Of a stretch of DNA of 64,000 bases, positions 5,721 through 11,043 are shown piece after piece. A program made the translations under genes and the position numbers. Each line of letters begins with the position of its first letter. Positions within the stretch are counted from its first letter, which is position 1. The notes below the pieces were generated by a model. The model did not search any database. It was not told the DNA's origin and was given only the letters and a program-made list of their open reading frames with translations. Origin of the DNA: Gammaproteobacteria bacterium (GTDB lineage: Bacteria; Pseudomonadota; Gammaproteobacteria; CBDBNL01; JAAOII01); assembly GCA_965207705.1 (NCBI GenBank), contig OZ242292.1, forward strand, positions 1,413,913 to 1,477,912, read 5' to 3'.

Positions 5721-7082
5721 CTACAGAATATACCTACTTAAATCTTTATCTTCAACCAGCGCTTCAAGTTGCTGCTTGACGTACTTATCATCTATTTCAA
5801 GCGCTTTCCCTTTCCTTTCTTGCGCAATATTGTGCGCATCAAAAGAAATCTTCTCTAATAATTTTTCCATAGTGGTTTGTAAACGACGCGCCCCTATATT
5901 TTCGGTATTCTCGTTAACTTGCCAAGCAATCTCTGCTATTTGTTTAATTGCTTTGGTGCTGAACTTAACTTTTAGTCCCTCAGTTTCCAACAGTCCCTTG
6001 TACTGCTCAATTAAGGAATAATCGGGTTCTTTAAGAATTCTTTCAAAATCACTGGCACGTAAGGATTGCAAGTTAACTCTAATAGGCAAACGTCCTTGTA
6101 ATTCGGGGATTAAATCAGACGGCTTGCTAAGATGAAATGCCCCTGAAGCAATAAAAAGTATATGGTCGGTTTTTATCATCCCACATCTTGTCTTTACTGA
6201 GCACCCCTCTATTATAGGTAATAAATCTCTTTGAACCCCTTCACGCGAGATATTGCCTGTGCGCTGTCCTGGCTCATTGGACTGAGTTATTTTATCCATT
6301 TCATCAATAAACACTATGCCGCTTTGCTCAACAATTTCTATGGCGTTGGCATTTATTTCTTCTTCATTGATGTAATTCTCGCTTATTTCTTCACTCAGCA
6401 GGCGTCGTGCTTTAGATATCGGCATCTTACGGCTTGGACTATTGCTGCCAGATAATTTTTTGAACATCTGTTGCAGATGATTGGTTGCATCTTCCATGCC
6501 TGGAGGACCCATAATTTCCACCCCCATAGAAGAGCCGCTAACTTGAATCTCAATTTCACGTTCCTCAAGTTTGCCAGCCCGCAGCTTACTACGAAAGGCG
6601 TTACGCGCCGACGATTCAGAAGTTGTGCTCGTATCTTCATCTGGAATAGGCGGCAGCAAAGCATTTAACAAACGTTCTTCAACCTTCTTGTCCACCAAAT
6701 CCTTAACTTCTTCACGTGCTTTATCTTGCAATAGTCCTACTGCAATATTGGCAAGATCGCGTATTATGGACTCAACATCTCGCCCAACATAACCTACTTC
6801 TGTAAATTTTGTTGCCTCAACCTTAATGAAAGGAGCGCCGACTAATTTTGCTAATCTTCTGGCTATTTCGGTCTTGCCCACGCCAGTAGGACCTATCATG
6901 AGAATATTTTTAGGAGCTATTTCGTTCCTCATGTCGGCAGGTAGCTGCATTCTGCGCCAGCGATTACGCAGTGCAATTGCAACTGCTTTTTTAGCTTCAT
7001 TCTGCCCTATGATGAACTTATCAAGTTCACTAACTATTTCTTGCGGAGCTAAGTCACTGCCGTAGGCGTTTTTATTTAACAT
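5721..7082 (-). CDS. hslU: ATP-dependent protease ATPase subunit HslU
   Basis: [53 protein letters not shown]. Confidence 0.99.
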
Positions 7083-7647
7083 TTTCTAAGGTTTCAAGTA
7101 TACAATTGTCGTTGGTGTAAATACATATATTAGCGGTTATAGCCATGGATTTTTTGGTTATATCTGCTGCGGAAAGTTTGGTCTCTTCAAGCAGGGCGCG
7201 CGCTGCAGCTGTAGCAAAAGTGCCGCCAGAACCTATGGCAATAATGTCATCTTGTGGCTCAATAACATCTCCGCTACCAGTTATAACTAAAGAATGCAGG
7301 GAATCCGCTACTACTAACAATGCCTCCAAACGTCGTAAATACTTGTCGGTACGCCAGTCCTTAGCAAGTTCCACCGCTGCCCTTTGCAGCATTCCTTGAT
7401 GTTTTTCTAACTTTGCTTCAAATCTTTCAAACAGGGTAAACGCATCGGCAGTGCTGCCTGCAAAACCAGCAAGTACCTTGTCATCATAAATTCTGCGGAC
7501 TTTGCGCGCATTTGATTTCATAACAACATTACCCATAGTAACCTGCCCATCCCCGCCCATAGCGACCTGTTTGCCGCGCCGCACTGATAAAATAGTGGTG
7601 CCGTGTAAAGGGGTCATTGAATTCATTTGTGAGTTTAGTTTATCCAT
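7072..7647 (-). CDS. hslV: ATP-dependent protease subunit HslV
   Basis: HG|TTILSVRR N-terminal Thr nucleophile, [26 protein letters not shown]. Confidence 0.98.
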
Positions 7648-7921
7648 AACATAACAATTGTAGGGACAAACATCTCATTTTCAAGTGATTTATAGCGATA
7701 GCCCTCATAACTTGTTGAGTCATGACGCTCCAATAGGAATGATAAAAATATATTTAGACGCTAAAGTGATATACAGACATATAATTATCTATAATTATAC
7801 AATTGTATAGAATATTTCTTGTATAATAAATTTTTGTGTCGCATTACTAAAATATAGTTATGCAGAAAAAATTAAACATTATATCGAACATTAAGTATGT
7901 GTCAACTTCACAAAAATAGTT

Positions 7922-8752
7922 ATGCCTGCTTTTAATGATTTAGATTTAAAGAACTGGAAGGAATCTGAGATATGGACTGATAGCTTATGGCTTATTCCTG
8001 CTAGAGACAAAAGAGGGAAACACGACGGGTTTTACCATGGGAACTTCATCCCTCAGATACCACGTCAGTTTATTCTAAGATATACCAAACAAAATGAGAT
8101 AGTATTTGATCCGTTTTTAGGTAGCGGAACCACTGCTTATGAAGCAGAAGAATTAAAAAGGAACTTCATAGGGATCGATATTCAGCCCAAAATGGTTGAG
8201 TATGTTAAGAATAAATTAGAGAACTCTAAAGCTAGTGCGGATATATTTGATGAAAAGAGCCAGGAAGGAAATAATTTTGCTGATATTATTATTGGAGACA
8301 GCTCTAACGAAGAAACTTTTATTAAGGTTAATGATATTATGAGGTCGCATAAAAGGCAAAAAATTCAATTTGCGATTTTACATCCTCCTTACTGGAATAT
8401 CATTAAATTTAGCGATAATAAAAATGATTTATCTGGTGCTTCCTCTCTTGATAATTTTTTAAAACAATTTGCTGCGATAGTGAAAAACACTGTTAATATT
8501 TTAGATATTAATAGGTATATTGCAATTGTAATAGGCGATAAATACTCAGCAGGTGAGTGGGTGCCGTTAGGTTTTCATTGCATGGAAGCTGCGAAGGAAT
8601 CAGGTTTAATATTAAAAAGCATTATAATAAAGAACATGGAAGGAAATCGCGCTAAAAAAAATCAGGGGGGAATTTGGCGATACCGGGCTTTATCAAGTGA
8701 TTATTATATTTTTAAGCATGAATATATCTTAGTATTTAAGAAAACTAAATGA
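7922..8752 (+). CDS. Amino (N4-C/N6-A) DNA methyltransferase with HPPY catalytic motif
   Basis: Motif X-like HGNFIPQIP, motif I FDPFLGSGTT, motif IV LHPPYW, C-terminal HEYILVFKK. Confidence 0.9.
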   Translation: MPAFNDLDLKNWKESEIWTDSLWLIPARDKRGKHDGFYHGNFIPQIPRQFILRYTKQNEIVFDPFLGSGTTAYEAEELKRNFIGIDIQPKMVEYVKNKLENSKASADIFDEKSQEGNNFADIIIGDSSNEETFIKVNDIMRSHKRQKIQFAILHPPYWNIIKFSDNKNDLSGASSLDNFLKQFAAIVKNTVNILDINRYIAIVIGDKYSAGEWVPLGFHCMEAAKESGLILKSIIIKNMEGNRAKKNQGGIWRYRALSSDYYIFKHEYILVFKKTK

Positions 8753-9900
8753 CTACTACTCACGTATTGATTGTCAGTGAACGGACAATGAAGCTCCATC
8801 TTGAATACTTATTTATAGGGACGGGAGGGAAAAAAACATTAATTGATTTTAATCAATCTGCCACAACTAATCTACATCATTCTACAGAAAGAAATTTAGT
8901 TGCCATGATAGCTGATATTAATAGGATAAGAAAAGATGATAAGATTATTTTTTATGTTCAGAAAGGGCAACAGGAGGGAACTTTTTATGGCATATTCAAA
9001 GTAACATCTGAGGCACCCTTTATAGATGATAATGATGATAGGCAATACTTAAAAAATGAGTTAGATAAGTTATTACCCTTTAGGGCTCTAATAAAACCTC
9101 ATGAAGTGTATGCCCGTGGAGTTACAGAATGGCAAGCATTGGATGAAATCAAAAATATACATTCTCCTAATCAGATGCTTTGGAGTTTAATCTACCGTAA
9201 ATTAAAAGCAAATAGAGGGTGTACTATGATTACTCTTTATGAATCAGAAAGATTATGCCAACTTATTCGCGATCATAATATGAAAAAATCTTTGAATGTT
9301 AATAATGGAATGCTGTCATTTGATGACAATAAGATAGTTTGTAAAAGTAGTAAAGCCAATGCATATAAAGGACGTCAGGTAGCGGTTGATATTATGCGAC
9401 GATTAATTGCTAAGCTAAAAGACGGCAAAGCATTTGAAGGACATTTGCAAGCATATATAACGCAAAATATTGGAACGGGGAGGGATCGAGTTCTAGATGA
9501 AATTATATTAACAGCGGGAGAGCAAGAGTGGATTGGCAATGAGGTATCTTGTGGAGTAGGCATGCAGAGGATAGATGTTTTATTATCTCTTACAAAAAAT
9601 GATCAGCGGGTTGTCGTCCCTATAGAATTAAAGGATGAAAAGATAAACCCCGATACAATATATCAAATGCAAAGATATATTTATTGGCTAGAACAATATT
9701 ATATTCCTAATATACAGGGCGATATTCAACCTGTTTTAATATCAAGGGCAATAGAAGACAAAACTTCTGCTAGTTATAAAGAAATTATTCAAAGTTTTGA
9801 CGTCTTTAATACTTCTAATAATAGTAGCTGTCTTAAACTTAAATATATTGAATTCTGTGAACAACAAAATCAGCTGATATTCAATAATATAACTTATTAA
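8749..9900 (+). CDS. Putative endonuclease: N-terminal EVE/PUA-like domain plus C-terminal NucS/EndoMS-like PD-(D/E)XK domain
   Basis: RIRKDDKIIFYV...FYGIFKVTSEAPF...LPFRALIKP matches the EVE-family pattern. EGHLQAYI...NEV...RIDVL...PIELK...QMQRY fits a PD-(D/E)XK nuclease with a QxxxY motif. Confidence 0.78.
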   Translation: MTTTHVLIVSERTMKLHLEYLFIGTGGKKTLIDFNQSATTNLHHSTERNLVAMIADINRIRKDDKIIFYVQKGQQEGTFYGIFKVTSEAPFIDDNDDRQYLKNELDKLLPFRALIKPHEVYARGVTEWQALDEIKNIHSPNQMLWSLIYRKLKANRGCTMITLYESERLCQLIRDHNMKKSLNVNNGMLSFDDNKIVCKSSKANAYKGRQVAVDIMRRLIAKLKDGKAFEGHLQAYITQNIGTGRDRVLDEIILTAGEQEWIGNEVSCGVGMQRIDVLLSLTKNDQRVVVPIELKDEKINPDTIYQMQRYIYWLEQYYIPNIQGDIQPVLISRAIEDKTSASYKEIIQSFDVFNTSNNSSCLKLKYIEFCEQQNQLIFNNITY

Positions 9901-10971
9901 ATGAATTATATCGGCAGTAAATTATCGTTACTTCAATTTTTGGAGGAATCTATTAACGAAGTTGTTGATGATAGCTGCAAAATATTTTGCGACCTATTCG
10001 CGGGTACTGGTATTGTAGGTAGCTACTTTAAGCAAAAGGGATATCAAGTAATAGCCAATGATATTCAATATTATAGTTATGCCTTAAACCGACACTATAT
10101 TGGCAATCATAAGGTATTACCATTTTCTAATCTTGTGAAAACGCTCCCCTCTCTGAGTGATGTGGGTATTGCTGATAGGAAAAATATTGTTTGTAATTAT
10201 TTATCTAACATAGTAGGAGAGAAAGGTTTTGTTTATAGTAACTTCTGTTGGGGGGGAACACGAGATAGCAGCACACCGCGCCAATATTTTTCTGATACCA
10301 ATGGATTAAAATGCGATGCAATTCGCCAGAAAATAGAAAGTTGGCAACAAGCTCGCCTTATTTCAGAAGATGAATATTTCTTTTTGATAGCAAGTTTACT
10401 TGAAGCAATTGATAAGCGCGCTAATACGGCATCAGTATATGGAGCTTTCTTGAAGCAAACTAAAAAATCTGCGCAAATTGACATGGTAATGAATCCCGCA
10501 AAATTGATTATAAATGATACCGGCCATCAAGTGTTCAATGAAGATGTTAATGAATTGGTGAAAAAAATTTCTGGGGACATTATGTATTTAGATCCTCCAT
10601 ATAATCATCGTCAATATGCGACCAACTACCATGTGCTGGAGACAGTTGCCCGATATGATAACCCGCAAGTTTTTGGTAAATCGGGTCTGCGTGAATATAG
10701 CAAACAGAAATCCTTATATTGTTCTAAGCCGCGAGTGGTGCAAAAATTTAAGGATTTGGTATTAAATGCTAAGACAAAATATATATTTCTCAGTTACAAT
10801 AACGAGGGTCTAATGTCTCTCTCAGACATCAAGGAAATAATGATGCTTAGAGGGAAGTATGGTTGTTTTACTAAACCTTACAATCGTTTTCGCGCAGATA
10901 AACCAGGGGCTAGGAATTATAAAGGAAAGGAAACAATAGAGTATTTGCACTATGTGAAATGTGCTGGCTGA
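9901..10971 (+). CDS. D12-class N6-adenine DNA methyltransferase (M.NlaIII/M.HpyI/FokI-like family)
   Basis: MNYIGSKL, CDLFAGTGIVG, ANTASVYGAFLK, YLDPPYNHRQY, LSYNNEG. Confidence 0.93.
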   Translation: MNYIGSKLSLLQFLEESINEVVDDSCKIFCDLFAGTGIVGSYFKQKGYQVIANDIQYYSYALNRHYIGNHKVLPFSNLVKTLPSLSDVGIADRKNIVCNYLSNIVGEKGFVYSNFCWGGTRDSSTPRQYFSDTNGLKCDAIRQKIESWQQARLISEDEYFFLIASLLEAIDKRANTASVYGAFLKQTKKSAQIDMVMNPAKLIINDTGHQVFNEDVNELVKKISGDIMYLDPPYNHRQYATNYHVLETVARYDNPQVFGKSGLREYSKQKSLYCSKPRVVQKFKDLVLNAKTKYIFLSYNNEGLMSLSDIKEIMMLRGKYGCFTKPYNRFRADKPGARNYKGKETIEYLHYVKCAG

Positions 10972-11043
10972 TTAGAGAGCGGCATAAAAACTTAACCTCC
11001 TTGCTTTTATATAATATATTTTCATTTATAATAGCGATTATCT

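Follow-up and report, generated by a model that had tools for sequence, protein, structure and literature searches.

Does a protein that couples an EVE/PUA-like domain to a PD-(D/E)XK nuclease act only on modified DNA, or can it serve as the nuclease of a conventional restriction-modification (R-M) system? The question is raised by a three-gene cassette in a 64,000-nucleotide (nt) stretch of a gammaproteobacterial genome (assembly GCA_965207705.1, contig OZ242292.1, positions 1,413,913 to 1,477,912 of the forward strand; hereafter the window), in which such a nuclease gene, R, lies between genes for two different DNA amino-methyltransferases, M1 upstream and M2 downstream (Table 1). An earlier sequence-only reading of the window took the cassette for a candidate new defence module and offered three options for it: (a) a type II/IIS system in which the EVE-like fold reads the sequence and each methylase protects one strand; (b) a two-mark logic in which one mark licenses cutting and the second protects self; and (c) a type IV nuclease packaged together with methylases. 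Our analysis indicates that the cassette behaves as a mobile type II R-M system rather than as a new kind of defence module, and we regard its assignment as an orthodox system of this type as very probable; the fuller reading, in which its site is CATG, appears reasonably likely to us.

An AlphaFold2 model of R, built from a 33-sequence alignment of the family (mean pLDDT, the per-residue confidence score, 82.9; pTM, the predicted template modeling score, 0.85), predicts an N-terminal domain with an EVE/PUA fold and a C-terminal NucS-like PD-(D/E)XK domain. Superposition with VIA-align places residues 2-174 on the EVE protein PH1033 (1wmm) with a Z-score of 13.2 and a root-mean-square deviation of 2.2 over 130 residues, followed by the EVE domain of VcaM4I (Z 10.1), THYN1 with 5-methylcytosine (5mC) DNA (Z 9.5) and YTH domains (Z ~9), and Foldseek recovers 2hd9 with this domain (E 1.1e-6). 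Residues 224-376 superpose on the catalytic domain of NucS (2vld) with Z 9.2, and the C-terminal domain matches the nuclease domains of MspJI and AspBHI with Z 5.5-6.0. At the sequence level these relationships are faint: the Pfam EVE model (PF01878) scores 22.2 bits on R, just under its gathering cut-off of 23 (E 1.5e-4), and reaches E<=0.01 in one of the 33 family members; NucS_C gives a weak match (14.7 bits against a cut-off of 24, E 0.03) and reaches that E-value in 20 of the 33. The NucS-type sequence scores of R fall below the Pfam and NCBIfam cut-offs, and R alone retrieved nothing meaningful in a sequence search of the PDB. A profile of the R family searched against the PDB found NucS at E 0.029, in an alignment spanning the ELK...QxxRY region.

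The C-terminal domain displays the motifs RID (274-276), ELK (293-295) and QMQRY (306-310), within which D276, E293, K295, Q306 and Y310 do not vary, not even between members sharing as little as 21-44% identity. E230 and N264-E265 are likewise invariant in the alignments of the family, and D276, E293 and K295 align with the catalytic block of NucS, showing an intact catalytic motif. The most conserved segment of the N-terminal domain, WSLIYRKLKGxRG, falls within the only low-confidence stretch of the model (pLDDT <50), and W143, K149 and R154 (numbering of family member P0201) are invariant among the same divergent members. We infer that this segment (residues 139-154 of R) is a DNA-contacting element that becomes ordered upon binding. 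Both domain calls of the sequence-only reading, an EVE-like N-terminus and a NucS-type PD-(D/E)XK C-terminus, were thereby upheld.

Table 1. Features of the cassette in the window. GC, fraction of guanine plus cytosine; ORF, open reading frame; aa, amino acids.
Feature	Positions	Strand	Remarks
Insert	7717-10983		3267 bp; GC 0.335; in this genome, not in same-genus G001
M1	7922-8752	+	276-aa ORF
M1 motif I, FDPFLGSGTT	8105-8134	+	Precedes motif IV (permuted order)
M1 motif IV, HPPY	8381-8392	+	Unusual variant of (D/N/S)PP(Y/F)
R	8749-9900	+	383-aa ORF
Predicted EVE/PUA-fold domain, presumed DNA/base reader	8749-9270	+	R residues 1-174
Low-pLDDT conserved segment	9163-9210	+	R residues 139-154, within SPNQMLWSLIYRKLKANRG
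Predicted NucS-like PD-(D/E)XK nuclease domain	9418-9900	+	R residues 224-383 plus stop
R nuclease-domain residues	D276, 9574-9576; E293, 9625-9627; K295, 9631-9633		Also E230, N264-E265, Q306, Y310
M2	9901-10971	+	356-aa ORF
M2 motif NYIGSK	9904-9921	+
M2 motif DPPY	10591-10602	+

The two flanking genes are amino-methyltransferases of different classes, as had been proposed. M1 belongs to the N6_N4_Mtase family (PF01555, E 2.5e-26), and its HPPY motif is conserved in 77 of 78 homologues. M2 is a D12-class (alpha) N6-adenine methyltransferase (PF02086, E 2e-51) with FCDLFAGTG as its S-adenosylmethionine-binding motif I, so that both methylases carry motif I together with motif IV. It is not Dam-like, scoring 23.9 bits with TIGR00571 against a cut-off of 114.85, and its relatives are named only generically ("DNA adenine methylase") in a name search. 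Sequence searches of the PDB returned no match for M2 and only generic beta-class methylases for M1. A PADLOC search, which the sequence-only reading had suggested, assigned both methylases to type II systems (MTase_II models; M1 to PDLC03351 with E 7.6e-95, M2 with E 1.3e-106) and had no restriction endonuclease model matching R. The PDLC03351 model carries about 90 extra N-terminal positions relative to M1, and some M1 homologues are ~360-420 aa long with an N-terminal extension of roughly 100 or more residues that the M1 of the window does not have (loci L122, L123, L129, L134, L137-L139, L142, L164-L166, L170 and L173; L092, 2856-3992; L025). The host genome is rich in methylases, with 16 PF01555 matches (11 of them full-length besides M1) and 7 PF02086 matches.

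Further evidence on the nature of R comes from its genomic associations. The R family is compact and well conserved; it comprises 2460 clusters at 90% identity (E<=0.001, among 3838 candidates scored), or 302 representatives at 50% identity. With one genome taken per species, 310 stretches were confirmed to encode it, of which 80 loci were kept as a genome set. A metagenome set was obtained with deep-branch queries (564 of 596 stretches confirmed), from which 80 loci were kept, ranked by likeness to P0201. Gene content was counted where the module has room, meaning 1300 nt or more of sequence to its left and to its right; 50 genome loci and 17 metagenome loci, out of 80 in each set, qualify as such loci with room. 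Carriers include Patescibacteria, Chloroflexota, Planctomycetota, Bacteroidota, Campylobacterota, Pseudomonadota and an Altarchaeum metagenome-assembled genome, with R proteins 51-59% identical to that of the window; a plasmid collection gave no R match, and among viral contigs R occurs in two loci only.

Of the 80 genome loci, 78 contain M1, and all but one of these 78 have it upstream of R on the same strand (77 loci); the gap there does not exceed 30 nt in 64 loci and 100 nt in 70. The two genome loci lacking M1 are L036, where R is 130 nt from the end of the available stretch, and L014, with a RecJ gene ahead of R and M2 as its companion. In the metagenome set this linkage reaches the deepest branch (L094 and L095, with R ~30% and M1 ~35% identical to the proteins of the window). 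M2 occurs in 24 of the 80 loci in the genome set and in 22 of them is separated from R by 2-17 nt; in the R tree most of its carriers group in two well-supported clades, the rest, including the window, being scattered. The trio is confined to a part of the genome set, 24 of 80 loci, so that lack of co-occurrence, which the sequence-only reading named as a refutation, applies in part. Because M1 occurs in 78 of 80 loci and M2 in 24, M1 and R are the core unit and M2 an accessory. A methylase, M1 and/or M2, adjoins R at every locus with room (50 of 50 genome and 17 of 17 metagenome), and at 38 of these 67 M1 is the only companion of R. The distances of M1 and R co-vary (Mantel r 0.71, a value that none of 999 permutations reaches), which shows co-transmission and nothing beyond it, related sequences being non-independent. 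In the flanks of M2-less loci, where 86 ORFs were scanned, we found unrelated housekeeping genes or other defence genes, and another D12 methylase only in L016 and L019, on the opposite strand. In a few carriers (L043, 1610-3382; L005, 5062-5811; L013, 2452-4293; L076, 640-2106) the neighbours of the module are other defence genes, encoding GmrSD, an Mrr_N protein and AAA_15/AAA_21 ATPases.

In the window itself the three genes are tightly coupled: M1 and R share an ATGA at 8749-8752, and the TAA stop of R (9898-9900) directly abuts the ATG of M2 at 9901, both read directly from the sequence. Separate, adjoining and co-oriented nuclease and methyltransferase genes are as expected of a type II R-M system. 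The segment is a true presence/absence polymorphism between genomes of the same genus: the hslV and Smr flanks are 53 bp apart in G001, which lacks the cassette, versus 3267 bp here, and are 93-94% identical in nucleotide sequence. GC content is 0.335 in the insert, lower than in the window (0.404) or in the 2.06-Mb genome (0.405); 500-nt windows between 7750 and 10249 range from 0.30 to 0.35, against 0.43 across hslU/hslV. The coupling, the AT-richness and the insertion between hslV and smr had all been read correctly from the letters. Among 31 related genomes, the source genome (G000) included, four carry R. The intact copies in G003 and G004, of other genera in the same family, are 51-52% identical to that of the window. 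In G002, a same-genus genome that is 72% complete, a 55-aa remnant of R lies between an M1 of 260 aa and an M2 of 359 aa (L090, G002:C6, 400-2607). Since these methylase genes are not on the contig that carries hslV-recA and are only about 65% identical in nucleotide sequence to those of the window, the G002 copy stems from an acquisition of its own, after which the nuclease was lost. Gain, nuclease loss and retention of the methylases are the usual life cycle of R-M systems. The cassette is therefore a horizontally acquired, mobile module, as indicated by the conflict of the R tree with taxonomy, the unrelated flanks, its absence from G001 and the R remnant in G002.

A likely target site is suggested by a fourth gene. 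Many metagenome modules contain an extra ORF of 200-250 aa, and 10 of 17 such ORFs scanned match PF05315 ("ICEA", the IceA1/NlaIII nuclease family) with E-values from 1e-64 to 1e-120, an eleventh (L159) matching at 1.8e-7. IceA enters the module in several orders and combinations (Table 2). M2 accompanies it in 12 of 13 IceA loci versus 16 of 54 IceA-less loci with room (Fisher p 5e-5, a significance that kinship among the loci inflates). The arrangement in which the two nucleases stand together and the two methylases stand together was seen on contigs L099, L102, L119, L124, L126, L128, L132, L136, L146, L158, L162 and similar ones.

Table 2. Gene orders and gene contents of R modules, as numbers of loci; the orders are a partial list, further ones occurring.
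Arrangement	Genome set	Metagenome set
Order M1-R	52	34
Order M1-R-M2	19	10
Order M1-IceA-R-M2	3	5
Order IceA-R, then convergent M1-M2	0	12
Order M1-R-IceA-M2	1	2
Order R-M2	1	2
Content M1+R, loci with room	34 of 50	4 of 17
Content M1+R+M2, loci with room	12 of 50	3 of 17
Content all four genes, loci with room	2 of 50	9 of 17
Content R+M2, loci with room	1 of 50	0 of 17
Content IceA+M1+R, loci with room	1 of 50 (L071)	0 of 17
Content IceA+M2+R, loci with room	0 of 50	1 of 17

In Campylobacterales, the order of one carrier (L074), PF05315 is found in 25 of 301 genomes. The 16 IceA loci recovered from this order comprise seven with IceA and M2 only, five with M1, IceA and M2 and no R, and four with R; in 15 of the 16 a homologue of M2, 45-53% identical to that of the window and mostly near full length, stands beside IceA. 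In the part of PMC4202330 that describes it, the C. jejuni ST-677 "IceA1 gene cluster" holds an endonuclease, the IceA1/NlaIII homologue, and two putative methylases, one of them an orthologue of hpyIM, whose specificity is for CATG; the relevant portion of PMC4687069 likewise gives this lineage an IceA1/NlaIII homologue with two methylases. The IceA and M2 pair is accordingly the iceA1-hpyIM arrangement, with the orthology to hpyIM resting on that part of PMC4202330, and the set of M1, IceA and M2 matches the ST-677 cluster as described there. M2 thus belongs to a family that pairs with IceA/NlaIII-type nucleases, which bears out the M.NlaIII/M.HpyI-like methylase of the sequence-only reading, again to the extent that PMC4202330 describes the cluster. 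Because every combination of one methylase (M1 or M2) with one nuclease (R or IceA) occurs, interleaved and at operon spacing, all four proteins most likely act on one common site; the published specificity of IceA and hpyIM would then make this site CATG. The source genome yielded no IceA gene by tblastn with five IceA queries, nor did the PF05315 profile find one there, though its controls also gave no match.

In light of these contextual connections, we propose that M1 and M2 methylate the host DNA, and that R would act as a two-domain endonuclease, with a reader of EVE fold at the N-terminus joined through a linker to a NucS-like PD-(D/E)XK cutter at the C-terminus, which cuts unmethylated DNA and is blocked by methylation. 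M1 and R would be the ancestral, self-sufficient pair and M2 a second protective methylase of the hpyIM/M.NlaIII type, with either methylase presumably protecting against either nuclease at palindromic CATG. The trio of the window would then be a CATG system in which an EVE plus NucS-type nuclease replaces the NlaIII-type one. The EVE-fold domain probably reads the target and possibly probes the unmethylated adenine, and our preferred guess is that its pocket admits adenine and excludes N6-methyladenine. That R would be blocked rather than licensed by methylation is suggested because one methylase suffices in most loci, because either M1 or M2 can be the sole methylase partner (R with M2 in L014; M1 with R and IceA in L071), and because methylase adjacency is universal, in contrast to the less than 6% of PUA-nuclease fusions that have a DNA methylase nearby in the excerpted results of a survey (PMC6765204). 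We entertain, as a tentative and somewhat doubtful extension, that the EVE/PUA fold, known so far in restriction only as a reader licensing the cutting of modified DNA, works in the opposite sense here: the domain would test the target base within CATG, plausibly with the adenine flipped out, and the NucS-type domain would cut only if this is unmethylated. On this view R founds a large orthodox family within a CATG supermodule of "one site, two methylases, two unrelated nucleases" whose parts are swapped between phyla.

Several observations weigh against this proposal. The CATG assignment is guilt by association, and IceA with M2 could be a separate system nesting beside M1 and R. Likeness to a single deep-branch member governed the ranking of the metagenome set, in which the 12 loci with convergent methylases, sharing one gene order and similar identities, are possibly close kin. 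CATG has an observed/expected ratio (O/E) of 0.66 in the host, the seventh-lowest tetramer and only moderately avoided. Words were counted, pooled and per locus, in 68 carrier loci of at least 5 kb and then in 58 of at least 7 kb; in the pooled loci CATG has an O/E of 0.65-0.68, not distinct from GATC, CTAG and GGCC, so that these loci display generic palindrome avoidance only. The most serious rival is that two unrelated systems adjoin, M1 with R being a type II system for a site other than CATG and M2 the orphan of an IceA/NlaIII-M2 (CATG) system that has lost its nuclease. Beyond the unremarkable CATG avoidance in carriers, it draws on the seven of 16 Campylobacterales loci with IceA and M2 alone, on the modules of M1 and R by themselves (38 of 67), and on the clustering of R-M genes in islands, methylase matches in the host genome numbering at least 12 of the N6_N4 type and 6 of the D12 type. 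Juxtaposition does not readily produce the interleaved orders, with M1-IceA-R-M2 in three genome and five metagenome loci and IceA-R with convergent M1-M2 in 12, nor the five loci with M1, IceA and M2 but no R, nor R with M2 in the absence of M1 (L014). The spacing of 2-17 nt between R and M2 in 22 of 24 loci, and the retention of both methylases together in G002 after loss of R, also speak against it. We therefore regard two adjoining systems as unlikely, though a real contender.

Word avoidance was also considered as a direct route to the target site and rejected: because the host avoids many words and has at least 12 N6_N4-type and at least 6 D12-type methylase matches, none of these words can be assigned to the cassette. 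Low host O/E values include GGCC (0.11), TCGA (0.18), GATC (0.28), CCGG (0.30), CATATG (0.05) and AGNCT (0.07-0.09). The last is an interrupted palindrome made up of the nearly absent words AGACT/AGTCT (O/E 0.07) and AGCCT/AGGCT (O/E 0.09); it is not known as the site of a common restriction enzyme.

A second difficulty concerns the state of this particular copy. The R of the window is the most divergent member examined: its end branch measures 0.91 (median 0.16), it departs from near-invariant columns 15 times where the 32 others do so 0-8 times, and it may be drifting. On the corresponding alternative, R would be inactive or decaying in this genome and methylation by M1 and M2 retained, either in an epigenetic role or as protection from isospecific nucleases. 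The G002 locus, which lost R and kept M1 and M2, offers a parallel, and the R of the window forms a single-member cluster at 90% identity, while its M1 and M2 clusters each have a second member, on a 2.09-Mb contig. The ORF is nevertheless intact at 383 aa, its translational coupling to both neighbours is preserved, and all 24 columns that are invariant among members 21-44% identical are kept, including D276, E293, K295, Q306 and Y310, which makes decay improbable.

The third difficulty is that EVE and YTH pockets normally favour modified bases, the opposite of what our model needs. It leads back to options (b) and (c) of the sequence-only reading, under which R would be a modification-dependent enzyme of type IIM/IV-like character whose EVE domain reads a methylated base, with one licensing and one protective mark or with methylases that are simply co-packaged. 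The fold of the reader, with THYN1 (5mC DNA), YTH (N6-methyladenine) and VcaM4I among its likenesses, and the MspJI-like architecture agree with this, and surveys, in the sections that treat them, class PUA-nuclease fusions in this way (PMC6765204, PMC7641849). The two-mark logic is disfavoured by the modules in which M1 is the sole methylase (38 of 67) and by R with M2 in the absence of M1 (L014), a combination that would be self-toxic under such a scheme. Both options sit poorly with the adjacency of M1 and/or M2 in 67 of 67 loci, against less than 6% in the part of the PMC6765204 survey noted above, with M1 upstream on the same strand in 77 of 78, and with M1 and R being translationally coupled and co-varying. 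Modification dependence thus appears quite improbable. Option (a) fares better: its orthodox type II core stands, and its assignment of one strand to each methylase does not agree with the data, since M1 is alone with R in 38 of 67 loci and M2 is alone with it in L014.

Hardly credible, finally, is a role for R in repair instead of defence, as a NucS/MutH-like nuclease that tells the strands apart by their methylation: the C-terminal domain does resemble NucS/EndoMS, but no NucS_N match appears in Pfam at E<=1, the best structural matches of the N-terminal domain being EVE and YTH, and the gene is patchy (4 of 31 related genomes, including G000), horizontally transferred, in an operon with a methylase, in unrelated insertion contexts and readily lost.

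Several known systems come close to the cassette. DpnII and MboI are two-methylase type II systems acting on one palindromic site, in which an alpha/D12 and an N6_N4-class methylase accompany a single nuclease and either may suffice. They differ from the cassette in that its M2 is not Dam-like, its nuclease is of another family and its probable site is CATG rather than GATC. The iceA1-hpyIM/NlaIII (CATG) systems resemble it in M2, as seen in the 45-53% identity to methylases beside PF05315 IceA, and in the cluster of M1, IceA and M2, which corresponds to the two methylases and IceA1/NlaIII homologue of C. jejuni ST-677 in the portion of PMC4202330 dealing with them; the nuclease of the cassette is an unrelated EVE plus PD-(D/E)XK protein. 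PUA-nuclease fusions such as MspJI and the EVE-HNH enzymes VcaM4I and TspA15I share with R an N-terminal PUA/EVE reader and a C-terminal nuclease; they are modification-dependent and have no cognate methylase, in contrast to R, which is methylase-adjacent in 67 of 67 loci, mostly in one operon. NucS/EndoMS shares the ELK...QxxRY block of the C-terminal PD-(D/E)XK domain; no NucS_N was detected in R, and R behaves genomically as a mobile R-M gene.

That one modular plan can serve both logics is shown by BfiI and SauUSI, in which one nuclease fold with different sensors yields either a methylase-linked cutter of unmodified DNA or a modification-dependent enzyme (PMC12191111). There a phospholipase D (PLD) nuclease is joined to a pseudobarrel (BfiI) or a helicase (SauUSI), as against the EVE and PD-(D/E)XK domains of R. 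The END nucleases discussed in the same paper (PMC12191111) were considered and are unrelated to R. UpaP162 of Ureaplasma parvum, weighed as a possible member of the R family, is, in the relevant part of PMC6191088, encoded by a methylase-then-"hypothetical protein" operon whose nuclease cuts CA^TG and had no recognisable domain; its methylase is predicted to make m5C, and its N-terminus, as deduced from the primers published for it, seems unlike that of the R family. A literature search, with REBASE outside its scope, found no described EVE/NucS-type nuclease paired with a methylase, and one on the FatI gene found none. New here are the nuclease family, the EVE fold in a methylase-coupled enzyme and the recombining set of genes that probably acts at CATG.

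In bioinformatic work, a PUA domain joined to a nuclease is taken as the signature of a modification-dependent restriction enzyme, and a family of this size (2460 clusters, 310 species) that is obligately coupled to methylases renders the signature unreliable. The family also offers a natural system for examining how a modified-base pocket is re-tuned against methylation. If the CATG prediction is true, it may yield an NlaIII neoschizomer that works by PD-(D/E)XK chemistry. The sets of M1, M2, IceA and R, being interchangeable, would be a clear case of isospecific R-M parts recombining modularly. Because PADLOC recognises M1 and M2 and not R, annotation of this type would see both methylases without a matching nuclease.

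With regard to the surroundings of the cassette, the upstream ORF at 7072-7647 on the minus strand encodes what we take to be HslV, and the downstream neighbour encodes a Smr domain (PF01713, E 1.6e-20). On the minus strand at 7905-7878, just within the left edge of the insert, a perfect sigma-70 consensus (TTGACA, 16 nt, TATAAT) faces hslV; promoter-like sites total 19 versus 18.9 in shuffles, that is, without excess. Close to each end of the insert, at ~7766-7790 and 10984-11003, stands a copy of a direct repeat, imperfect and ~20 bp long (AGTGATATA...AC.TA-like). The empty site of G001 has one copy, and this repeat may be a trace of the insertion mechanism.

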